A stretch of 64,000 bases of DNA from Escherichia coli (GTDB taxonomy: Bacteria; Pseudomonadota; Gammaproteobacteria; Enterobacterales; Enterobacteriaceae). This document shows positions 1 through 30,160 of the stretch, piece after piece. The stretch is from the NCBI RefSeq assembly GCF_024223415.1, contig NZ_CP100500.1, one strand, 5' to 3'. The notes below the pieces were generated by a model. That model was not told where the DNA came from, made no database searches, and worked only from the letters and a program-made list of their open reading frames with translations. The position numbers and the translations under genes were made by a program. The number at the start of each line of letters is the position of its first letter. Within the stretch, counting starts at the first letter, position 1.

Positions 1-74
1 TTTGCAGTGGCATGAGGGCACCACTTTATATGTCAGAAAAGTTTCACTCTCCCGACATATTCTTACAAAACAAA

Positions 75-1178
75 TCAGAACTGATAAGTCAAACCAACAG
101 CGACAATATCATCGGTTAATACATCAGTTCTTTCAGTGAATTGATTCTTATCAAGCAGGTTGATTTTATAGTCTACGTATGTAGACATATTTTTGTTGAA
201 GTAATAAGCAGCACCGACTTCAATGAATTTTTCAATGTATCCGTCATTATGTTTTTCAGGGATACCAGTTTTGGTGGAAAGGTCTTTGGCTTTCGACTGG
301 ATATAAGCAAGAGACGGGCGCAAACCAAAGTCGAACTGATACTGTGCAACTACAGCGAAATCTTCAGTTTTATTGGCTACACCGTTGTAGCCGCCGGGCG
401 AGTACTTGATTGCGCGGGTATTACGTGTTTCACCATAAGTGGCTGCCAGGTACAGATTATTCGCGTCATATTTTACGCTGGTAGCCCACTGTTCAGCTTT
501 TTTACCTTTACCAAAAGTCGTCGCTTCCTGTGCATTGGTGCGATCGGCTGCACCATATGCAGCTACAAAACCAAAGCCTTCATATTCATAACTGACAGAG
601 CCGCCAACACCGTCGCCGTTTGAAGTGCCTGCATTGTCACGCTCATTTTTACCCAGATACTGAACCGCAAAGTTCAGTCCATCAACCAGACCGAAGAAGT
701 CGGTATTACGGTAAGTGGCAACACCACCTACACGACCCACGAAGAAGTTATCCCCGTTAACAGAACCAGGCCCAAATTCAGGGAGGACATCAGTATAGCT
801 TAATGCGTCATACACCACGCCATAGTTACGACCATAATCCAGAGAGCCAATATTTTCTAGTTTCAGGCCAGCGTATGCCAGACGGGTTTTGTCTCCTGCA
901 GAGCCATCTTTTTCTGCCTTGTTGCCTTTGAATTCATATTCCCATTGACCAAAACCAGTTAACTGATTGTTGATTTGGGTTTCACCTTTGAATCCAAGAC
1001 GGGCATAAGTTCCATCACCTTCTTCTTTGGCGTTAGAAGAAAAGTAATGTTTACCCACTACTTTGCCATATAAATCCAGTTTATTACTGTTTTTATTATA
1101 TATTTCTGCTGCATTTGCAGACATTGCCAGAAATACTGATGCTGCTACAGCAGAAAGTGCCACTGTTAAATTTTTCAT
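75..1178 (-). CDS. Outer-membrane porin, OmpC/OmpF/PhoE family (NmpC/OmpD-like prophage moron)
   Basis: 367 aa with signal peptide [23 protein letters not shown] and C-terminal beta-barrel ending GLTYQF; SD GAGGA 5 nt upstream; sits upstream of the lysis genes as nmpC does in DLP12. Confidence 0.9.
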
Positions 1179-1776
1179 TTTTTATCCTCTGGTGGGAGTT
1201 AATTGGACGACAAAATGCTATCAGGATGAAAATTTAATTTCTGTGTATAATGTATACAAGGAAAATTAAGGAGTCCGATTCTTTATATGTGACCACCATC
1301 ACAAAATAAGAAGTCATGCAAGCTAATAAATAGATGGCTATCTTTCACTCAAAAAATTAAGATCAATCTTTTTTATTAGAAGTGCTAAATATATTTAATT
1401 ATTTGGGGTTGTGAGTTATTTATATAACCTTAATAAAGACATTACTTTTGAAGAAAAATACGTGCATAGAAGAATGCATAATCTTTAATTACATCTTGCC
1501 AAGCGTCGCAACAATCCAGAGATTGTATGTGGGGTGAATCATGCAGCATGCAGGGTATGAACAAACACTTTACGATCGTAAAAGTATGCATATCATGGTA
1601 AGAGTGGTTCCTACGCCACACAACTTAAACCCGCAGCCAGGCGGTTTTTTACATCGAAAATCTGCACCGGACATTAAGCTCTTTGGCGGACCAGATAAGA
1701 GGTGCGCTTAGTTGGGTTTGTCGGGCTTTCTCTGAGATTTGCGGTATTAATCCCGTAACGTTATTATGCTGCTCGA

Positions 1777-1852
1777 GGCCCTTTAGCTCAGTGGTGAGAG
1801 CGAGCGACTCATAATCGCAAGGGCGCTGGTTCAAATCCAGCAAGGGCCACCA
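1777..1852 (+). tRNA. tRNA-Ile2 (anticodon CAT, lysidine type; ileX/ileZ-like)
   Basis: Cloverleaf with 7-bp acceptor ggccctt/aagggcc, D stem gctc/gagc, anticodon loop ctCATaa, T loop ttcaaat, encoded CCA; close to E. coli ileX. Confidence 0.85.
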
Positions 1853-1853
1853 A

Positions 1854-1927
1854 CCGCCACTAGCTCATCAGTACAGAGCATCAGCCTTCTAAGCAGACGG
1901 TGCGGGGTTCGAGTCCTCGGTGGCGGA
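1854..1927 (+). tRNA. tRNA-Arg (anticodon TCT)
   Basis: Acceptor ccgccac/gtggcgg, D stem gctc/gagc, anticodon loop ctTCTaa, T arm cgggg-ttcgagt-cctcg; one A-A mismatch in the anticodon stem; no encoded CCA. Confidence 0.75.
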
Positions 1928-1933
1928 TATCAT

Positions 1934-2009
1934 GCCGACTTAGCTCAGCAGGCAGAGCAGTTGATTTGTAATCATCAGGTCACCAGTTCGAACCCGGTAG
2001 TCGGCACCA
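1934..2009 (+). tRNA. tRNA-Thr (anticodon TGT), thrU-like, possibly slightly degenerate
   Basis: Acceptor gccgact/agtcggc plus ACCA, D stem gctc/gagc, anticodon loop ttTGTaa, T loop ttcgaac; one mismatch each in anticodon and T stems. Confidence 0.6.
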
Positions 2010-2017
2010 TATTTTCA

Positions 2018-2040
2018 GGCTCGCATTTGCGGGCCTTTTT
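2018..2040 (+). terminator. Rho-independent terminator after the tRNA cluster
   Basis: Hairpin ggctcgc-attt-gcgggcc followed by TTTTT; a second weaker hairpin plus T7 follows at ~2059-2078. Confidence 0.5.
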
Positions 2041-2404
2041 CATATCTGAACAATACAGCCGCTTTGTGCGGTTTTTTTCATTTGCACAACAGGTAAGAGT
2101 ATTGAATCCGCAGACCTCGCGGAACTGGTGAAAGGTGCCGCGCAGTGCTCTTATCGTTGTGGTGAAGCTCAATGGCGAGCTAGCAGATAGGCGACAGTGA
2201 AAATACTAGTCATGTATCTGACCGCCGCGCGTACTGCAATCGGCAGCGCACCGATGGAAGCCGGTTCGATTCCGGCCGCCACAACCCAAACTGAGCCGTA
2301 GCCACTGGCTGTCCTGAACTCCTCAGTGATAGTTACGCTGCGGCCTTCTTTTTCCCCTTCCTAATACAAGAACTACGCAATCCGTTACTGGCGGAGGCGT
2401 TGCT

Positions 2405-2620
2405 ATGAAATCCATGGATAAGATAACAACGGGTGTCGCCTATGGCACCTCGGCAGGCAGTGCCGGGTACTGGTTTTTGCAGTGGATTGATCAGGTCAGT
2501 CCGTCACAGTGGGCTGCTATTGGTGTGCTGGGGAGTCTGGCACTGGGCTTTCTGACTTATCTGACGAATCTGTACTTCAAAATAAGAGAAGACAAGCGTA
2601 AGGCTGCACGGGGAGAGTAA
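2405..2620 (+). CDS. S: Class II holin (pinholin, phage 21 S21-like) with dual-start motif
   Basis: 71 aa, [30 protein letters not shown]... matches S21 as recalled; two TM segments; SD GGAGG upstream; M1-K-S-M4 dual start. Confidence 0.9.
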
Positions 2621-2624
2621 TTCA

Positions 2625-3176
2625 ATGACTCAAAACTATGAACTGATTGTGAAAGGGATCCGCAATTTTGAGAATAAAGTTACGGTAACTTTAGCGTTAC
2701 GGGACAAAAAACGCTTTGACGGTGAAATTTTTGACCTGGACATCTCGCTGGACCGTGTTGAAGGTGCCGCGCTGGAGTTTTATGAGTCAGCAGCCAGAAG
2801 GAGCATCAGACAGGTCTTCCTGGATGTTGTTGCCGGGTTATGTGAAGGGGATGAGCAGTCGCCGGAAAAGCGCCCCGTAATTTTAGAGGCGCAGAATGTG
2901 TGGATAACCTACAAAGGAAAGCTACCGGGAAGAATTACTGGTTCTCTGAAGACGCCACCGACGGCATTGCGGTCAGAAAAAGATGATATTGAATCGCCCA
3001 TTGAAAAACTGGAGGGCAGCGTAGCTGATCTGAATAAAAAATTGTCGGTGCTGATCCCTTCTGAAGATGAAAAAAAACGCCGCGATGAGCAGTTTGCGGC
3101 GTTTTACGATTATTGCATTGAAGTTACTCGCAGGAATTTTGTGAAGATTTTTGAGGAGGGTAAATCTCTTCAGTAA
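2625..3176 (+). CDS. Hypothetical protein (moron inserted between holin and endolysin)
   Basis: 183-aa ORF starting 4 nt after the holin stop with SD GGGGAGAG; no family recognised; AT-richer than flanking lysis genes. Confidence 0.6.
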   Translation: MTQNYELIVKGIRNFENKVTVTLALRDKKRFDGEIFDLDISLDRVEGAALEFYESAARRSIRQVFLDVVAGLCEGDEQSPEKRPVILEAQNVWITYKGKLPGRITGSLKTPPTALRSEKDDIESPIEKLEGSVADLNKKLSVLIPSEDEKKRRDEQFAAFYDYCIEVTRRNFVKIFEEGKSLQ

Positions 3177-3384
3177 GCTTAATGGCGGACGCTGCAATTA
3201 ATTCAGGAAGGTCCGCAAGGTCATCTGTCAGTGGATATGATGAAAAATCGGCGGCAGTTCTGTTAAGAATCGCTTTAACTAATTCCTTTTCCTTCTCCGG
3301 CAACAAGTTGATTAGAGCTACGACTGCTTGCCTGAGTGCGATTAAATCAGCAAAAGTTTGTTTTGGTAGATTTGTGTAATCCAT
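3124..3384 (-). CDS. Hypothetical small acidic protein, convergent with and 3'-overlapping the previous ORF
   Basis: 86 aa from ATG at 3384 (MDYTNLPKQTF...) with SD GAGGTG 3 nt upstream; the six-frame ORF extends to 3507 but that part overlaps the endolysin start and lacks an RBS. Confidence 0.5.
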   Translation of the reverse strand: MDYTNLPKQTFADLIALRQAVVALINLLPEKEKELVKAILNRTAADFSSYPLTDDLADLPELIAASAIKLTEEIYPPQKSSQNSCE

Positions 3385-3497
3385 AGTCACCTCTGTGTTT
3401 ATCAGATTGACATCCTCCTCCCGCCAGTGCCCATCACTGGTGAGGTAAGATTTAACATATCCAGGGTTCAGAAACCGATAAATCCTGATAAATATCC

Positions 3498-4031
3498 ATG
3501 AGCGCAAAAATCAAATACGGCCTGTCAGCTGCTGTTCTGGCGCTGATTGCTGCAGGCGCGTCTGCTCCTCAAATACTTGACCAGTTTCTGGATGAAAAAG
3601 AGGGTAACCACACTACGGCATACCGCGATGGTTCCGGTATATGGACCATCTGTCGTGGTGCCACAATGGTGGATGGTAAGCCCGTCATACCGGGAATGAA
3701 GCTGTCGAAGGAAAAATGCGACCAGGTTAACGCTATTGAACGTGATAAGGCGCTGGCATGGGTGGAGCGCAATATTAAAGTACCACTGACCGAACCACAA
3801 AAAGCGGGTATAGCGTCATTCTGTCCCTATAACATTGGCCCCGGTAAGTGTTTCCCGTCGACGTTTTATAAGCGGCTTAATGCCGGTGATCGTAAAGGTG
3901 CCTGTGAGTCGATTCGCTGGTGGATTAAGGACGGTGGGCGTGATTGCCGCACACGTTCAAATAACTGCTACGGACAGGTTATTCGTCGTGACCAGGAAGC
4001 AGCACTTGTGTGCTGGGATATCGACAGATGA
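3498..4031 (+). CDS. R: SAR endolysin (phage lysozyme, R21-like)
   Basis: 177 aa; N-terminal signal-anchor LSAAVLALIAAGASAP followed by lysozyme-like motifs (EGNHTTAYRDGSGIWTICRG); paired with a pinholin. Confidence 0.9.
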   Translation: MSAKIKYGLSAAVLALIAAGASAPQILDQFLDEKEGNHTTAYRDGSGIWTICRGATMVDGKPVIPGMKLSKEKCDQVNAIERDKALAWVERNIKVPLTEPQKAGIASFCPYNIGPGKCFPSTFYKRLNAGDRKGACESIRWWIKDGGRDCRTRSNNCYGQVIRRDQEAALVCWDIDR

Positions 4032-4125
4032 GCAGAATATTTTGCTGAAAAATGACGTTGGCCAACGCGGACGGATAACACGATATTCGACATAAATGAA
4101 TTTAAATAGTGAATAAAAGCAGAAA

Positions 4126-4154
4126 CCCCGATTGTTGGTCGCAATCGGGGTTTT
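4126..4154 (+). terminator. Rho-independent terminator immediately downstream of R
   Basis: 9-bp stem ccccgattg/caatcgggg, 7-nt loop, then TTTT. Confidence 0.6.
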
Positions 4155-4216
4155 GTGTTTCTGGCAGTAAGTTATGGGAGGCTGCCTTGATTAATTTTAG
4201 CGGAGGAGACTGGATT

Positions 4217-4354
4217 GTGGAAGCTCTGAAATTGCTCGAAAGAAGTCCGGTTCTGAGAAGAATGTTTTATATAGCTCTTATAGTTATCGGAGCATTCGCC
4301 GTTGCGAAATCACTTCCGGGAATAGCTGAAATCATAAAGGCGCTGAATGCATAA
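4217..4354 (+). CDS. Small membrane protein (45 aa, GTG start), part of the insertion between R and Rz
   Basis: SD GGAGGA 9 nt upstream of GTG; one predicted TM helix MFYIALIVIGAFAVA; alternative ATG start at 4262. Confidence 0.35.
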   Translation: MEALKLLERSPVLRRMFYIALIVIGAFAVAKSLPGIAEIIKALNA

Positions 4355-4520
4355 AGAATACCTGGCTGAGGCTGACAAACAGGTCTCTGAATTGAAAGCT
4401 CCGGTAACCGATGACATCAGCGGAGCGGTGGCTTTTGCCATTAAGTGGGTGGCAGTCGGCGTTGCTATATCACCGGTACTGTATGGGCTGGCAAAGCTGG
4501 TTATTGCGTTGAAATCATAA
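4347..4520 (+). CDS. Small membrane protein (57 aa), start overlaps the stop of the previous small ORF
   Basis: MHKEYLAEADKQVSELK... with C-terminal TM helix AFAIKWVAVGVAISPVLYGLAKLVIAL; below the 60-aa cutoff of the ORF track. Confidence 0.4.
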   Translation: MHKEYLAEADKQVSELKAPVTDDISGAVAFAIKWVAVGVAISPVLYGLAKLVIALKS

Positions 4521-4583
4521 CTGTTACGGCCAGGTGATTCGTCGTGACCAGGAAAGTGCATTAGCCTGTTGGGGGATAGATCA

Positions 4584-5051
4584 GTGAGCAGAGTCGCCGC
4601 GATTATTTATGCTCTGGTTATCTGCATCATCGTCTGCCTGTCGTGGGCGGTCAATCATTACCGTGATAACGCCATCGCCTACAAAGAACAGCGTGATAAA
4701 AAAGTCAGTGAGCTGAAGCAGGCGACCGCCACCATTACTGACATGCAGCAACGCCAGCGTGCTGCTGATGTACTCGATGCTAAATACACGAAGGAGTTGG
4801 CTGATGCGAAAGCTGAAAATGATGCTCTTCGGCGCAAGCTTGATAATGGTGGTCGGGTGCTCGTCAAAGGAAAATGCCCTGTGCCATCCTCAGCCGAAAC
4901 CTCCAGCGCCTCCGGCATGGGCAATGATGCCACCGTCGAACTCTCTCCAGTTGCTGGACGAAACGTTCTCGGTGTCCGGGACGGAATTATCCGCGACCAA
5001 ACAGCACTGAGAACGCTTCAGGAATACATCAGGACGCAATGCCTTCGATGA
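4584..5051 (+). CDS. Rz: Rz i-spanin
   Basis: GTG start, [40 protein letters not shown]... closely matches lambda Rz as recalled; N-terminal TM anchor. Confidence 0.85.
4804..5010 (+). CDS. Rz1: Rz1 o-spanin lipoprotein, embedded in the +1 frame of Rz
   Basis: [21 protein letters not shown]... with lipobox VVGC and proline-rich mature part; entirely inside Rz. Confidence 0.8.
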
Positions 5052-5191
5052 TAGCGATAATTTTACTCATCATCCTTCACATCTGGCTGTGTAGACAGGG
5101 TGGTGATCACTTCTGGAGTGAATCCAGATTAAACATCTCATTGCTGATGCTTGAAGTTGAGCATCTGGCGCGCGGTAAGGGGCTGCGTTGA
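5048..5191 (+). CDS. Possible small membrane protein (47 aa), ATG overlaps the Rz stop
   Basis: ATGA overlap with Rz stop; N-terminal hydrophobic [15 protein letters not shown]; followed by a terminator at 5226-5248. No homology support. Confidence 0.3.
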
Positions 5192-5225
5192 AATAAGAGC
5201 CAGTCATTAAAAATACCTGGATTTA

Positions 5226-5248
5226 GCCTCGCATTCGCGGGGCTTTTT
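5226..5248 (+). terminator. Rho-independent terminator
   Basis: Hairpin gcctcgc-attc-gcggggc followed by TTTTT. Confidence 0.5.
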
Positions 5249-5546
5249 ATTGCCATTACAAAAGCCACTCCCTACAGAGTGGCTTTGATAATGGCTTATA
5301 CCCTACACGGGATAACTTAACTGATATCCCTTTTAACGGATAAAGGTATTCAAGCCTGACACATCATGCGCTGTATCGTCGCCGTATTCCCGTATTAACA
5401 GAGACCGTAGCCCGACGGGGAACTCCTTCTGCGCGAGTGTGCGGGAATAATCAAAAACGATGCACACCGGGTTTTACTGTGCTGACAGACGCAGGGTTAC
5501 CCTCATAGTCGCTTTTCCGGTGCGATGGTGGAAGAAACCGGGATGT

Positions 5547-5741
5547 TTATTCATCATCTCTTTGGATTGATGTATATGCTCTCTTTTCTGACGTTAGTCT
5601 CCGACGGCAGGCTTCAATGACCCAGGCTGAGAAATTCCCGGACCCTTTTTGCTCAAGAGCGATGTTAATTTGTTCAATCATTTGGTTAGGAAAGCGGATG
5701 TTGCGGGTTGTTGTTCTGCGGGTTCTGTTCTTCGTTGACAT
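5547..5741 (-). CDS. YlcI/YnfO-family small protein (DUF3950, ribbon-helix-helix-like)
   Basis: 64 aa with motif NIRFP...NFSAWV..AC; paralogous to the ORF at 63486-63683; this family sits before the terminase genes in DLP12 and Qin. Confidence 0.7.
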   Translation of the reverse strand: MSTKNRTRRTTTRNIRFPNQMIEQINIALEQKGSGNFSAWVIEACRRRLTSEKRAYTSIQRDDE

Positions 5742-5899
5742 GAGGTTGCCCCGTATTCTGTGTCGCTGATTTGTATTGTCTGAAGTTGTTTTTACGTTAA
5801 GTTGATGCAGATCAATTAATACGATACCTGCGTCATAATTTATTATTTGACGTGGTTTGATGGCGTAGATGCACGTTGTGACATGTAGATGATAATTAT

Positions 5900-6060
5900 T
5901 ATCATTTTGCGGGTCCTTTCCGGCATGTGGACCCGTTACGGGGCGTCGACCTCGCGGTTTTTCGCTATTTATGAGATTTTTTGAGGGGGTGGTTGTTGTT
6001 TAATTGTTTGGTATATCTAATTGATAAGTAAGGTGAAAATAAAATAAATACAACAACCTT
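5900..6060 (+). other. cos site (cosN cohesive-end sequence at 5941-5952, flanked by cosQ and cosB regions)
   Basis: gttacg|GGGCGTCGACCT|cgcggtttttcgctatttatga matches the lambda cos sequence GGGCGGCGACCTCGCGGGTTTTCGCTATTTATGA with one mismatch in the 12-nt overhang. Confidence 0.75.
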
Positions 6061-6168
6061 ACGATGTGCTTTGATGTCATTAATGTGAAAAAATTAAATG
6101 ATATCAAATGGTTTTGTAAAAACACATGGTTGTTGTATCGCTTTTTATCGATGACTTATGGAGAGGAG

Positions 6169-6675
6169 ATGGCCTTTTTATTGAATAAAAGTGATATGGC
6201 CTCCTCCATCGGTATCTCTGTTCAGGCATTTGATAAATGGGGCGTTCCTCCTGTCGAGCGTCGGGGGAGGGAAGTTTTTTATGACGTTAAAACTGTACTG
6301 GAGATAGATCGCGAGCGGCGACAACACAATCATAGAACACCTGATGACGGGGGCGATCTGGAGGAAAGGCTGCTTCGGGCCAGAGCTGAACTGACAGAAG
6401 AACAGGCCGTAGCTCAAAAACTTAAAAATCAGGTAACCGAAGGTAAGCTCATCGATTCAGACTTCTGCGTTTTCGCCCTCAGCAAGCTGGCAATGGCGTT
6501 ATCCAGTACGCTTGATTCCATCCCTTTATCCATGCAACGACAGTTTCCTGATTTAACACCGCGCCATCTTGACCATCTGAAAACCCTTATTGCGAAGGGG
6601 GCAAATCAGTGTGCGCGGGCAGGGGATAAATTACCGGATTTACTCGATGAATATATCAGAGCAACAACTGAATAA
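6169..6675 (+). CDS. Nu1: Terminase small subunit (Nu1-like)
   Basis: N-terminal HTH region NKSDMASSIGISVQAFDKWGVPP aligns with lambda Nu1; exact start uncertain (6151, 6169 or 6196 all in frame). Confidence 0.8.
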   Translation: MAFLLNKSDMASSIGISVQAFDKWGVPPVERRGREVFYDVKTVLEIDRERRQHNHRTPDDGGDLEERLLRARAELTEEQAVAQKLKNQVTEGKLIDSDFCVFALSKLAMALSSTLDSIPLSMQRQFPDLTPRHLDHLKTLIAKGANQCARAGDKLPDLLDEYIRATTE

Positions 6676-8575
6676 TATGATGAGTGCTGTCACAACAGCA
6701 TTACAGCCCCTGATAAGGGCATTGCCGGTGACGGCAGTTGAATGGGCTGACCAGTATTATTATCTGCCTAAAGAATCCTCATACGGTGACGGCGAATGGA
6801 AAACGCTGCCGTTCCAGATCGCCATCATGAACAGTATGGGTAATGACCTGATCCGCACTGTTAATCTGATTAAATCTGCCCGTATTGGTTATACAAAGAT
6901 GTTGCTGGGGGTGGTCGGGTATTTTATTGAGCATAAATCCCGAAACAGTCTGCTTTTTCAGCCCACGGATTCTGCCGCTGAAGATTTTATGAAGTCTCAC
7001 GTGGAGACGACGATTAGGGACGTGCCATGCCTGAAAGACCTTTCCCCATGGCTGGGTCGTAAACATCGTGATAATACCCTCACGCTGAAACGCTTTTCAT
7101 CGGGCGTCGGTTTCTGGTGCCTGGGCGGCGCTGCCGCCAAAAACTACCGTGAAAAATCCGTGGACGTGGTCTGCTATGACGAACTCTCATCGTTTGAACC
7201 TGATGTTGAAAAAGAGGGCTCGCCAACCCTGCTGGGGGATAAGCGTATTGAGGGCTCTGTATGGCCAAAATCCATTCGCGGCTCGACGCCTAAAATCAAA
7301 GGCTCCTGCCAGATCGAAAAAGCCGCTAACGAGTCGGCACATTTCATGCGTTTTTATGTGCCCTGTCCGCACTGTGGGGAGGAGCAGTATCTGAAATTTG
7401 GTGATGATGCCTCGGCTTTCGGTCTTAAGTGGGAGAAGAATAAGCCAGAAAGTGTTTTCTACCTTTGTGAGCATCATGGCTGTGTGATCCATCAGTCTGA
7501 GCTTGACCAGAGTAACGGGCGGTGGATCTGTGAAAACACGGGGATGTGGACCCGTGACGGTCTGACGTTTTTCAGCGCCCGGGGTGATGAAATTCCGCCG
7601 CCGCGCTCCATCACTTTCCATATCTGGACGGCGTACAGTCCGTTCACCACCTGGGTACAGATAGTCTATGACTGGCTGGATGCACTGAAAGATCCCAACG
7701 GCCTGAAAACCTTTGTGAACACCACGCTGGGCGAGACCTGGGAAGAGGCCGTGGGCGAAAAACTCGATCACCAGGTACTGATGGATAAGGTTGTGCGTTA
7801 CACGGCGGCGGTGCCTGCCCGGGTGGTTTATCTGACGGCGGGCATTGACTCGCAGCGAAACCGTTTTGAGATGTATGTCTGGGGATGGGCTCCGGGAGAG
7901 GAAGCCTTTCTGGTGGATAAAATCATCATTATGGGACGTCCCGATGAGGAAGAGACGCTGTTACGTGTGGATGCGGCGATCAACAAAAAATACTGCCATG
8001 CAGACGGAACCGAAATGACCATTTCCCGTGTCTGCTGGGACATCGGGGGGATCGATGGCGAAATCGTTTATCAGAGGTCAAAAAAACACGGTGTTTTCCG
8101 GGTGCTGCCGGTAAAAGGCGCATCTGTCTATGGCAAGCCGGTGATCACCATGCCAAAAACCCGCAATCAGCGGGGCGTGTATCTGTGTGAAGTGGGGACG
8201 GACACCGCAAAAGAAATTCTCTATGCCCGTATGAAAGCCGCTCCCACGCCTGCGGATGAATCCACGTCGTATGCCATCCGTTTTCCTGATGATCCGGAGA
8301 TTTTTTCGCAGACAGAGGCGCAGCAACTGGTCGCGGAAGAGCTTGTGGAGAAGTGGGAAAAAGGAAAGATGCGTCTGCTGTGGGATAACAAAAAGCGGCG
8401 TAACGAAGCGCTGGACTGCCTGGTGTATGCCTACGCGGCATTACGTGTGTCCGTGCAACGCTGGCAGCTTGATCTGGCTGTACTGGCAAAATCCCGGGAA
8501 GAAGAGACGACCCGGCCAACCCTTAAAGAACTGGCAGCGAAGCTGTCCGGAGGAGTGAATGGTTACAGTCGCTGA
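6647..8575 (+). CDS. A: Terminase large subunit (gpA-like)
   Basis: 642 aa; MNISEQQLNN...TAVEWADQYYYLPKESSYGDGEWKTLPFQIAIMNSMG closely parallels lambda gpA. Confidence 0.95.
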   Translation: MNISEQQLNNMMSAVTTALQPLIRALPVTAVEWADQYYYLPKESSYGDGEWKTLPFQIAIMNSMGNDLIRTVNLIKSARIGYTKMLLGVVGYFIEHKSRNSLLFQPTDSAAEDFMKSHVETTIRDVPCLKDLSPWLGRKHRDNTLTLKRFSSGVGFWCLGGAAAKNYREKSVDVVCYDELSSFEPDVEKEGSPTLLGDKRIEGSVWPKSIRGSTPKIKGSCQIEKAANESAHFMRFYVPCPHCGEEQYLKFGDDASAFGLKWEKNKPESVFYLCEHHGCVIHQSELDQSNGRWICENTGMWTRDGLTFFSARGDEIPPPRSITFHIWTAYSPFTTWVQIVYDWLDALKDPNGLKTFVNTTLGETWEEAVGEKLDHQVLMDKVVRYTAAVPARVVYLTAGIDSQRNRFEMYVWGWAPGEEAFLVDKIIIMGRPDEEETLLRVDAAINKKYCHADGTEMTISRVCWDIGGIDGEIVYQRSKKHGVFRVLPVKGASVYGKPVITMPKTRNQRGVYLCEVGTDTAKEILYARMKAAPTPADESTSYAIRFPDDPEIFSQTEAQQLVAEELVEKWEKGKMRLLWDNKKRRNEALDCLVYAYAALRVSVQRWQLDLAVLAKSREEETTRPTLKELAAKLSGGVNGYSR

Positions 8576-27788: not shown

Positions 27789-28534
27789 AACTGATAAAAA
27801 AACCCCTCTGAAAATTCTGTCAGAGGGGGGCAAGGATCTATATTTATTATGCAGTAATGCTTTCACTCCGGTAATTAATTTCCGTGATTAACTGCTTTCG
27901 ATCAATAAAGGAATTGCAAAAAGGTGATCTTGTTCACGACATCGTGGATGATAATATGCCTGATGTCTGAATCCGGAAACAGTGATCTGGCGGGTTTCAT
28001 GTGAAGTTGACGGATAAAAAAATCCGCACGACCAGACAGACGTGCGGTTTACGAAATTCGTAACAAGAGGCTTTTCTACGGATCACGTGGTGCGTGCCAC
28101 GTGAAATTTTTGTAGCGCAAAATGTGTAATGTGTAAATACAAGGAAGGAAAAAGTTAAATCGGTGGAAGTCCATGCCTGCCACATGTATGTCTGCATTCC
28201 TCGTTTTGAACAGAATTCTCACCAGACATCGTGAATTTCTCATTCAATCATCAGAGATATTAACCAGGATTTTTATTGTTTTGTGATATCAGCAGTGCAG
28301 GTATACAGACATTAAAGTAATCAGGTTTATTATAACCACCTTTACAAAGTTGTATGTGTTTATAATTTAAGGATTTTAATCCCAGTCGTTTTCTGCTGCT
28401 TAAATTGAGGGCGCATATTATACACAATAATATTCCTGGCATTATTAAATTAATAAAAGAGGATTCTTATCACTGTATTTTTGCTCCGCACTACCGTTCT
28501 GGCTGGTGAAGTAATAATACAGGAGAATAACAGA

Positions 28535-29644
28535 ATGCTTAAAAGACGTGATGCTTTTTTAAAGAAAAGCGCGCTGGCAGTGAGTGTGGCCCTGCTGCTC
28601 TCATCTCAGGCTTCGGCTCATAAAACAATTACTGATTCAACGGCGGGTATTATCTGGATTGATGGTGGCGGTCAGTCACTTGAAAAAGTAGCTGTGATTG
28701 ACCGTCAACTAAATGATACAGGATATAATTTTGCCGTAGGTAGTGGTGCAGCAATTCTGGATGCGGATAAATCCATGGCAACAGGAAATAATACAGCTGT
28801 TTTTAATGCAGACAACAGTGTCGCTCTGGGGTATGGCTCTCAGGTGAATGGAGAAAGCAATGTACTTTCTGTAGGGGCCGGTCCTTCAGGATATGGATTT
28901 TCAGTTGATGGTGCACCGGAAACCCGCCGGATTATAAATGTTTCAGATGGTGTTAAGGATAGTGATGCGGCCACAAAAGGACAGATGGACAACGCCATTG
29001 CAGATGCTGTACGGGAGTCGGGGGATGCCCTGCGCGGTGAGATAGGAGCTGTCTACCGTGATGCTGTTGCTGATGCTAAGAGTCGAGTGGAATCGGCAGA
29101 AAACAGACTTAACGGTAATATTACAGCTGCCAGGGCTTCTGCGCAGGAATACACGGATGCGGTGAAGTCGGATGTTCTGGACGAGACGCGTACATATACA
29201 GACAGCAGTGTGCGTACTGTCCGTAACGAGGTGAAAAGCCAGGCAGAACATCTCAGCGATGTGCTTGTGAAGAACAGGGCGCAGACGGATGCAGCAATAG
29301 CCTCAAATACAGCAGCGATAAGGAATAACAGTCATCGTCTGGATTTGACGGAAGCCTGGCAGAAGATGGCGACAGAGAGAATGAATAATATGCAGGAGCA
29401 GATTAAAGAGAACCGGAAGGAGTTAAGGGAGAGTGCAGCCCAGAGCGCGGCACTGGCCGGTCTTTTCCAGCCATACAGTGTTGGAAAATTTAACGCGACA
29501 GCAGCCGTTGGTGGTTACCGTGATGAGCAGGCCATTGCGGTGGGCGTGGGCTACCGTTTCACAGAGAATGTGGCAGGAAAAGTTGCAGTTGCTGCAGGTG
29601 GGTCATCCGCATCGTGGAATGCTGGTGTGAATTTTGAGTTCTGA
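28535..29644 (+). CDS. Trimeric autotransporter adhesin, YadA-like (Eib-family-like)
   Basis: Signal peptide, head/neck motifs (INVSDGVKDSDAATKGQMDNAIAD), coiled-coil stalk and C-terminal anchor ending AGVNFEF; SD AGGAGA. Confidence 0.8.
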   Translation: MLKRRDAFLKKSALAVSVALLLSSQASAHKTITDSTAGIIWIDGGGQSLEKVAVIDRQLNDTGYNFAVGSGAAILDADKSMATGNNTAVFNADNSVALGYGSQVNGESNVLSVGAGPSGYGFSVDGAPETRRIINVSDGVKDSDAATKGQMDNAIADAVRESGDALRGEIGAVYRDAVADAKSRVESAENRLNGNITAARASAQEYTDAVKSDVLDETRTYTDSSVRTVRNEVKSQAEHLSDVLVKNRAQTDAAIASNTAAIRNNSHRLDLTEAWQKMATERMNNMQEQIKENRKELRESAAQSAALAGLFQPYSVGKFNATAAVGGYRDEQAIAVGVGYRFTENVAGKVAVAAGGSSASWNAGVNFEF

Positions 29645-29704: not shown

Positions 29705-30160
29705 ATGCTGGATATAATCCTGGCGACGAGAGATATTTATTTTGAAAAAGCCCTGCGAGAGATATTTGGAACCGTAAGCAGTCGAATCAGATATATAGAA
29801 GATGCCATATCAGACAGAAGAAGGGTGCAGTCAGGCAGGTCATTCAGATATTATTTTGTATTCTGTGATGATGAGTATACAGATATTGTTCGTATTCTTT
29901 TTACCGGAGAGGCCTGCTGTATTCTGAATAAGTCGATGCTGAATCTGAGAGCGGCCGGAGGTGTGTTGACGCTGGAAGAGCGCAGAGCGGTACTGAACCG
30001 GTATTACAGAGGTTTAAGTATTGCGGAGATTACAGAAGAGACGGGGCAGAATGACAAGACGGTATACGGTCATCTTCGTCGTGCACTGCAGCGGTCTGGA
30101 TTCCGGAAGGGGCGTTTTATAAAGGGGAGAGAAGCTGCGGGGGATTCAGGTGTTGAATAA
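29705..30160 (+). CDS. Putative transcriptional regulator with sigma-70 region-4/LuxR-type HTH
   Basis: C-terminal LTLEERRAVLNRYYRGLSIAEITEETGQNDKTVYGHLRRALQR; preceded by palindrome cccgggggagtcccccggg. Confidence 0.6.
   Translation: MLDIILATRDIYFEKALREIFGTVSSRIRYIEDAISDRRRVQSGRSFRYYFVFCDDEYTDIVRILFTGEACCILNKSMLNLRAAGGVLTLEERRAVLNRYYRGLSIAEITEETGQNDKTVYGHLRRALQRSGFRKGRFIKGREAAGDSGVE

Follow-up and report, generated by a model that had tools for sequence, protein, structure and literature searches.

Does a porin gene at the very edge of a run of phage genes belong to the phage or to the chromosome beside it, which porin does it encode, and what would it do for its host? These questions are raised by positions 75 to 1178 of a 64,000-nucleotide stretch of Escherichia coli DNA (NCBI RefSeq assembly GCF_024223415.1, contig NZ_CP100500.1), hereafter the window, in which an earlier sequence-only reading had proposed an OmpC-family porin gene carried as a moron by a prophage. 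We found there an intact gene for a general porin, located inside a complete lambda-like prophage, whose product appears to be a mosaic of sequences resembling Lc, the porin of phage PA-2, and the chromosomal porin OmpF. The reading that we favour, at a probability of roughly 0.72, is that the prophage carries this gene as a moron, in the gap between its antiterminator gene Q and its late promoter pR', and that the product is a lysogenic-conversion porin of the Lc/NmpC class.

An intact porin gene inside a lambda-like prophage

75..1178, minus strand: porin coding sequence, 367 amino acids including a 23-residue signal peptide, with the stop codon at 75-77
1110..1178, minus strand: signal peptide, codons 1-23, from the alignment with the OmpF, OmpC and Lc precursors, cleavage predicted before AEIYNK
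1185-1190, minus strand: Shine-Dalgarno sequence AGAGGA, 7 nucleotides 5' of the porin ATG

The open reading frame (ORF) at 75..1178 begins with ATG on the minus strand, and its product matches the Pfam family Porin_1 (PF00267) over the whole profile (1-337 of 337; E 2.7e-127; 425.3 bits against a cut-off of 23.7), so that it is not a chance ORF. Its top relative among solved structures is E. coli OmpF, which aligns with it end to end (E 1.5e-143). The signal peptide is 83% identical to that of Lc and 43% identical to that of OmpF, and the protein ends in YQF, with the terminal Phe. A complete porin gene on the minus strand, with its own Shine-Dalgarno sequence and just before a tRNA and lysis region transcribed from the other strand (tRNA genes at 1777-2009, plus strand), is what the sequence-only reading had described, and all of this was borne out. 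At the nucleotide level the coding sequence is identical to the E. coli GF60 gene for WP_089580980.1, a protein that the databases name merely 'porin'. In the assembly collection, 373 blocks list the exact protein (P0001), which was intact in all 24 of the contigs read from among them.

The window begins 74 bp past the porin stop codon, and the left neighbour is not decidable from the window alone. Contig L016 (GCA_047683815.1), which is 100% identical to window positions 1-5945, extends further left; in this contig a 141-residue Q antiterminator (PF06530) ends 109 bp left of window position 1, and beyond Q lie primase/helicase-type replication genes and CI-like repressors. The porin gene adjoins Q in all six places shown for the exact protein, and the order Q, opposite-strand porin, lysis genes is common to all four complete E. 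coli genomes with this porin lineage (GF60, ECCNB12-2, Ch1 and TUM1886); three of them have tRNA genes in the interval from the porin to the lysis genes, and TUM1886 has none annotated there. The chromosomal asnS-ompF-aspC context is absent; the neighbours are Q, pR', tRNA genes and a holin gene. On the right, a lambda-like structural gene set continues to about 27.8 kb, and the prophage right end lies some 30 kb away, adjoining the chromosomal genes btsS/btsR (yehU/T), past which the chromosome is that of E. coli (97.5-98.3% identity). The porin gene is located inside a complete lambda-like prophage and, because L016 and the relatives place Q directly to its left, not in a chromosomal flank; the doubt attached to the sequence-only reading, that the gene might be chromosomal sequence flanking a differently placed prophage end, thereby falls away.

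The porin gene occupies the gap between Q and the late promoter

1569..1651, plus strand: late promoter module (pR', qut, tR'), by homology to the annotated module of phage VT1-Sakai, divergent from the porin gene
1569-1596, plus strand: pR', TTTACG-16-TATCAT, also found by the promoter scan
about 1610-1617, plus strand: qut, aligned with the Q-utilization site of VT1-Sakai
1629-1651, plus strand: tR' hairpin with T-run, aligned with the VT1-Sakai terminator
28..60, minus strand: 15-bp stem-loop in the porin 3' untranslated region, lacking a U-run (fold of L016 5872-6050, z-score -4.5)

The only non-coding block common to this region, the cryptic K-12 prophage DLP12 and phage PA-2 is window 1569-1654, which also matches hundreds of Shiga toxin (Stx) phages and their relatives at the 3' end of Q; in the aligned stretch of VT1-Sakai, the annotation gives a late promoter, a Q-utilization site and the terminator of pR'. 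The Q protein of the porin-bearing prophages is 79% identical to QuuD of DLP12 and 73% identical to Q of VT1-Sakai, and its homology to the latter ends at the residues DRYV, where the VT1-Sakai promoter starts. The 3' end of Q directly adjoins the promoter, or overlaps with it, in VT1-Sakai and HK75; here the two are 1.7 kb apart. Judged by these homologies, the porin cassette sits between Q and the predicted target promoter of Q, outside the late transcript. PA-2 carries lc (GenBank J02580) in the same slot and orientation, divergent from the holin and lysis genes and adjoining the common pR' block; the earlier proposal that the gene is placed as nmpC is in DLP12 is thus confirmed and can be narrowed to the Q-pR' gap.

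Other features fit a moron, as had also been proposed. The gene has a GC content of 43% (36% at third codon positions, GC3) against 51-56% in the neighbouring phage genes, and a GGGCGC-UUU-GCGCCC hairpin with a U-run, a likely terminator, lies about 70-85 bp left of window position 1; a terminator-like site is likewise found on the minus strand in GF60 (L001 11931-11915). The moron description therefore stands on an insertion between elements that adjoin in relatives, a deviant composition and a terminator-like hairpin of its own, the promoter being putative. A repeat search of positions 1-2700 returned short matches at chance level only, with no target-site duplication around the porin cassette.

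Mosaic structure of the porin

891..1178, minus strand: 5' mosaic segment, codons 1-96 (signal peptide, strands b1-b3, loops L1 and L2), Lc/NmpC-like, bounded by a maximum chi-square breakpoint
360..884, minus strand: central mosaic segment, codons 99-273 (strands b4-b12, loops L3-L6), OmpF-like, bounded by maximum chi-square
246..317, minus strand: loop L7, codons 288-311, specific to this lineage and, in the alignment, longer by 9 residues than its counterpart in OmpF or Lc
78..233, minus strand: 3' mosaic segment, codons 316-367 (strands b14-b16, loop L8, terminal YQF), Lc/NmpC-like, from the alignment

The porin scores below the cut-off of every specific NCBIfam model with which it was compared: 519.6 against 583 for OmpF (NF007446), 460.9 against 484 for OmpC (NF007841) and 437.2 against 599 for PhoE. 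In pairwise alignments it is 68% identical to K-12 OmpF and equally to PA-2 Lc, 60% to OmpC, 58% to PhoE and 57% to OmpN. The label 'OmpC-family' used in the sequence-only reading therefore holds in the broad sense of Porin_1 and fails in the narrow one, the protein lying below the OmpC cut-off and reading as an Lc/OmpF mosaic closest overall to OmpF; by these scores it is not an OmpC orthologue.

The identity to Lc varies strongly along the protein, with Lc-like ends (codons 1-96 and 316-367) that continue into the 3' flank and an OmpF-like core. The 5' segment is 72-93% identical to Lc at the amino acid level (83-87% at the nucleotide level over codons 1-75) and 43-80% identical to OmpF, and in the 3' segment identity is about 76-80% to Lc and 40-67% to OmpF. 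Homology to the PA-2 lc record begins at the ATG and goes on beyond the stop codon into the 3' flank, as far as window position 6. In between, alignment residues from about 94 to 285 are mostly 70-100% OmpF-like, dropping to about 50% around L6; the core (about 99-273) has 30-77% identity to Lc and about 74% overall to the E. coli OmpF protein, and at codons 162-200 nucleotide identity reaches 90-91% with K-12 ompF, where lc gives 44-82%. Loop L7 is 29-39% identical to all reference porins, and only a sister allele (P0002; 70%) matches across it; an AlphaFold2 (AF2) model places it between strands 286-298 and 312-326. Among the 91 sites that agree with only one of the two porins OmpF and Lc, OmpF is favoured over Lc 37 to 7 inside codons 99-273, while outside them Lc is favoured 38 to 9; the two-breakpoint maximum chi-square of 38.3 was reached in none of 500 permutations. 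By this test the porin is a significant mosaic, with apparently Lc-like ends, an OmpF-like core and a long L7 of its own.

The simplest reading is that a resident lc/nmpC gene had its centre replaced by ompF-like sequence and that L7 diverged later. Because the 5' 290 nucleotides, the 3' 160 nucleotides and the 3' flank are lc-like, Q is close to QuuD and the pR' block is common to DLP12 and PA-2, the comparison shows a gene that, as far as homology can tell, descended in place from an lc/nmpC-type gene. Since identity between the core and E. coli OmpF is no higher than about 74%, the replacement is not recent or its donor is unsampled.

The same modest identity would also fit a separate and old porin lineage whose ends and core drifted at unequal rates, no recombination with ompF being involved. 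For such a lineage speak the lack of a closer chromosomal donor among the best 120 database matches listed and the possibility that the apparently recent NmpC::OmpF chimeras are assembly artefacts. Unequal drift sits badly, however, with the sharp clustering of the informative sites, with the 90-91% nucleotide identity to K-12 ompF at codons 162-200 and with flanks and a slot that are lc/nmpC-like, and we regard it as unlikely.

The chimeras just mentioned, P0008 and P0014 (L019 6001-7074; L022 and L023 6001-7077), together with P0003 on L107, have an NmpC-type 5' part and a 3' part that is exactly E. coli OmpF. On their 5' side P0008 and P0014 are flanked by phage holin, lysozyme and terminase genes and on their 3' side by aspC-ycbL-mepK-ldtD-mukB, as if recombination between nmpC and ompF had rearranged the chromosome. 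Their junction is contiguous in none of 5426 complete E. coli genomes, and the assemblies that have it are short-read drafts or contigs covered 1.5-5x; as the chimeras may be mis-joins, we did not use them as proof of ongoing recombination.

Pore residues, surface loops and selection

The residues that define the OmpF pore are all conserved in the porin, namely K16, R42, K80, R82, R132, D113, E117, the L2 latch residue E71, R100 and the terminal Phe (F340). At the tip of L3 the PEFGG motif reads PEFGPG (G120P, D121G), and the pore mouth differs from that of OmpF by R167G and R168T. The net charge of the mature protein is -6, compared with -12 for OmpF and -17 for Lc. The AF2 model, built on an alignment of 42 sequences, has 16 strands and a 29-residue L3 (120-148). 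Alignment and model together show what is predicted to be a 16-strand OmpF-type barrel with a basic pore cluster (K16, R42, R82, R132) facing an acidic L3 (D113, E117).

Compared with the 80%-identical sister allele of ECCNB12-2, Ch1 and TUM1886, the gene has a synonymous divergence (dS) of 0.70 and a ratio of nonsynonymous to synonymous divergence (dN/dS) of 0.19, which splits into 0.09 in the barrel and 0.32 in the external loops, the loops evolving about 3.5 times faster than the barrel. By these rates the porin is under purifying selection and bears what is probably the usual signature of an exposed, working porin.

The upstream control region

1179..1568, minus strand: porin upstream control region, 390 bp of 28-34% GC, delimited by composition, not homologous to the lc/nmpC upstream region
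1288..1303, no strand assigned: perfect CRP-type palindrome TGTGAccaccaTCACA (TGTGA-N6-TCACA), 110 bp upstream of the ATG, its centre at 117 bp

Within 1179-1568 nothing matches PA-2 or DLP12, and only the adjoining pR' block aligns. A donor of this region was sought, and the region occurs only next to this porin lineage, in 4 of the 5426 complete E. coli genomes at 97-100% identity. It contains a perfect CRP-type palindrome that is the only match in the 64-kb window, where 0.08 would be expected by chance, and of which both half-sites are kept in TUM1886; the PA-2 lc record likewise annotates two CRP sites upstream of lc. An Rfam scan of positions 1-6000 gave three tRNAs and sub-threshold matches only, with no known small RNA upstream of the porin gene.

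Between the two porin alleles, the interval 1179-1585 and the first 25 or so codons are 96-100% identical, compared with 72-86% in the rest of the coding sequence and 85-93% on the Q side (L016 and L011). This pattern suggests a recent exchange of the promoter-proximal or of the coding part.

Comparison with known porins and morons

PA-2 Lc resembles the porin in its signal peptide, in its N-terminal 93 and C-terminal 52 residues (76-93% identical), in homology that reaches into the 3' flank and in having one or more CRP sites upstream. It differs in the core, which is OmpF-like here, in an L7 that is 9 residues longer here and in an unrelated upstream region, and the overall identity is 68%. 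DLP12 (nmpC is K-12 b0553) has the same order of quuD, opposite-strand nmpC, pR' block and essD-rrrD-rzpD, with 79% identity between the Q proteins and 76% between the pR'/tR' blocks; unlike the present gene, which is intact, K-12 nmpC is interrupted by the insertion sequence IS5, DLP12 has no tRNA genes between pR' and the holin gene, and the porin core differs as it does from Lc.

E. coli OmpF (PDB 2OMF/3HW9) is 68% identical end to end and provides the likeness of L3, L4, L5 and strands b4-b12, whereas L1, L2 and L8 are of the Lc type, the ompF upstream region is missing, the gene is not at the asnS-ompF-aspC locus and its GC3 is 36% against 49% in ompF. Salmonella OmpD and the porins named 'OmpD/NmpC' (of ev207, 2G7b, 4A7, the PhiR series, phage 434 and P1/P7-like phages) are phage-borne members of Porin_1 with about 58-64% identity, but the allele with the OmpF-like core is absent from INPHARED, where none of 42 phage records exceeds 64% identity.

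The Stx morons of phages 933W and VT1-Sakai are similar in that cargo is carried, with tRNA genes, in the interval between Q and S, in phages with the same Q family (73%) and the same pR' module. The stx genes, however, lie downstream of pR' on the late strand and depend on Q, whereas the porin gene lies upstream on the other strand and should be Q-independent.

Proposed role and alternatives

If the gene is a lysogenic-conversion porin, it would be transcribed leftward from a promoter of its own within the AT-rich interval 1179-1568, with help from CRP at 1288-1303. Because it lies upstream of and divergent from pR', its transcription would be independent of prophage induction, and it should be expressed or silenced independently of Q. 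The product would be exported, assembled into trimers by the beta-barrel assembly machinery (BAM) and would join or displace OmpF and OmpC in the outer membrane, so that the lysogen would gain an OmpF-like channel with a less acidic constriction (G120P, D121G) and different surface loops. Permeability and the docking of phages, colicins and antibodies may be altered in consequence, by analogy with PA-2 Lc; in work by Schnaitman and Pugsley dating from 1975-1986, PA-2 lysogens reportedly make Lc as a major porin, have reduced OmpC and resist OmpC-dependent phages. After induction, early transcripts extended beyond Q by antitermination would run into the porin gene antisense and should shut it down.

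Several observations weigh against this reading. The sigma-70 scan of the upstream region yielded 9-of-12 matches only, no commoner than in shuffled sequence, and a transcription start could not be placed. The region is of the AT-rich kind (28-34% GC) that H-NS often silences. Regulation could not be carried over by homology from lc or nmpC, an idea that we rejected as the upstream regions are unrelated apart from the pR' block. In ECCNB12-2 the IS5-family element ISKpn26 (L009 7287-8458) lies about 100 bp upstream of the ATG of the sister allele, and K-12 nmpC and the phage 434 porin gene are also disrupted by IS5; with such insertions in or near its members, the class appears to be often dispensable. 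The AF2 model is of moderate confidence only (mean pLDDT 69.8). A benefit by superinfection exclusion would rest on analogy only and is not anchored to a receptor: the C-terminus of the prophage J protein shares 83% identity with J proteins of the VT1-Sakai type, in whose records a receptor is not given, and an attempt to deduce the receptor from it allowed no conclusion. As a separate observation, the porin slot has been hit by IS5 repeatedly.

Several of these points would suit an intact gene that is shut off, or almost so, in the lysogen (H-NS being one candidate silencer), that affects the cell little and that is either hitch-hiking in a conserved slot or used under rare conditions: the low GC content upstream, the weak promoter-like matches and the IS5-family insertions in or beside class members. 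In addition, inactivation of nmpC has no consequence for growth in K-12 (PMC11677980). The nmpC promoter is, on the other hand, active in K-12 (PMC11677980), and in the uropathogenic E. coli strain CFT073 two prophage nmpC genes are expressed at both RNA and protein level and are thermoregulated (PMC12890032). The barrel dN/dS of 0.09 across a dS of 0.70 points to long-term selection on the protein, the faster loops are those expected of a surface-exposed product, and the gene has a perfect CRP site and was intact in each of the 24 contigs read from the 373 blocks that list the protein; we therefore consider silence improbable, somewhat more so than the origin by unequal drift discussed above.

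A part in lytic growth, as a late outer-membrane component aiding lysis or release or as a decoy on debris and vesicles, might be suggested by the position beside the lysis cassette and the late promoter. It is very improbable, in that the gene lies on the opposite strand upstream of pR', where Q-dependent late transcription is not sense and early read-through past Q is antisense, and that no such role is attached to the Lc/NmpC class in the DLP12 and PA-2 records or in PMC11677980 and PMC12890032. A chromosomal ompF/ompC paralogue merely flanking the prophage end, an idea that could lean on the start of the window 74 bp past the stop codon and on the OmpF-like core, can practically be dismissed in view of Q, replication genes and a CI-like repressor on the left in L016 (100% identical over 1-5945), the same order in four complete genomes away from asnS-ompF-aspC, a right prophage end some 30 kb away at btsS/btsR and scores below the OmpF and OmpC cut-offs.

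Other features of the prophage

1777-2009, plus strand: three tRNA genes, anticodons CAT, TCT (Arg) and TGT (Thr), downstream of pR'
2405..5051, plus strand: lysis cassette, consisting of holin, DUF1327, lysozyme and Rz genes
2405-2620, plus strand: P21-type holin
2625-3176, plus strand: DUF1327 protein, 183 amino acids, between holin and lysozyme
3498-4031, plus strand: lysozyme
4569-5051, plus strand: Rz
6064-8575: Nu1/large terminase subunit

The homologue in GF60 of the tRNA with the CAT anticodon is annotated as tRNA-Ile. Prophages that are otherwise 98% identical disagree in the second tRNA of the late cluster (window 1854-1927; GF60 L001 13854-13930): Arg(TCT) is followed by Thr(TGT) in the window, and GF60 and Ch1 have tRNA-Lys and no third tRNA. 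The homology between the window and GF60 stops at window position 2023. Between the tRNA genes and the holin gene, the non-coding block 2072-2349 recurs, with 96% conservation, in phages that include HK75 and Salmonella phage S.Inf 5-2, and it contains a fragment at 2229-2287 (plus strand) resembling the 3' half of a tRNA or transfer-messenger RNA (tmRNA), GGTTCGATTCCGGCCGCCACAACCCA; the tmRNA match in Rfam stays below threshold at 20 bits, and ARAGORN does not call a gene at this place.

In the lysis cassette, an ORF of 127 codons on the minus strand (3124-3507) overlaps the DUF1327 gene in antisense and has no family match, and the interval around 2625-3507 is unlike GF60, where pseudogene fragments are annotated. 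The prophage carries a second cargo gene for an outer-membrane protein, a 387-residue trimeric autotransporter (28481-29644, plus strand) with a YadA-type membrane anchor and a coiled stalk, followed by a gene for a small protein with a helix-turn-helix like that of sigma-70 region 4 (29705-30160, plus strand); both stand at the prophage right end, before btsS/btsR.

Distribution and significance

Lc-type porin DNA, with at least 80% of lc covered, is present in 2465 of the 5426 complete E. coli genomes (45%), and porins are carried by 42 sequenced phages and 322 IMG/VR contigs. The mosaic lineage was found in 4 of the 5426 genomes and in none of the 42 phage records, in which the best identity is 64%; among the 322 contigs it was found in 3, one of them matching at 100% and the others at 79%. 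A further porin (P0006; 68% identical, 383 amino acids) was considered as a member of a wider prophage family and set aside, its context being a non-phage island. Of the four complete genomes with the lineage, three have a recorded source, in each case chicken or chicken meat (Switzerland, China and Russia), and the fourth has none; the lineage may be associated with poultry. Our literature search found no paper on this mosaic porin, and the open-access literature searched has almost nothing on phage-encoded porins, Lc or PA-2; a paper on the prophage small RNA svsR proved unrelated to the porin locus.

We also entertain, tentatively and as clearly less than an even chance, that the slot between Q and pR' is a mobile exchange site for major-porin sequence and that an lc/nmpC gene with an ompF core is spreading through E. 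coli as an 'alternative OmpF'. Its core would have been derived from ompF by gene conversion, a new L7 being acquired afterwards, and it would combine Lc-type L1, L2 and L8 with the constriction changes G120P and D121G. If this were true, such prophages would shuffle and spread receptor, antigen and permeability variants of the main porin and not merely supply a spare one.

The gene is a rare new allele within a long-known class of phage porins and a lysogen-modifying gene of an ordinary kind, and because the allele is rare its practical weight is small. Porins nevertheless govern the speed of antibiotic and nutrient uptake and give phages, colicins, toxins of contact-dependent inhibition (CDI) systems and antibodies a place to dock, so that a prophage installing an OmpF-like channel with foreign loops could alter entry and docking in one step and move that change between strains. 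The mosaic is a clear natural example of a phage-borne porin gene with OmpF-like sequence, and its placement between Q and pR' would explain how a lysogen can express cargo of this sort without relying on the late operon.

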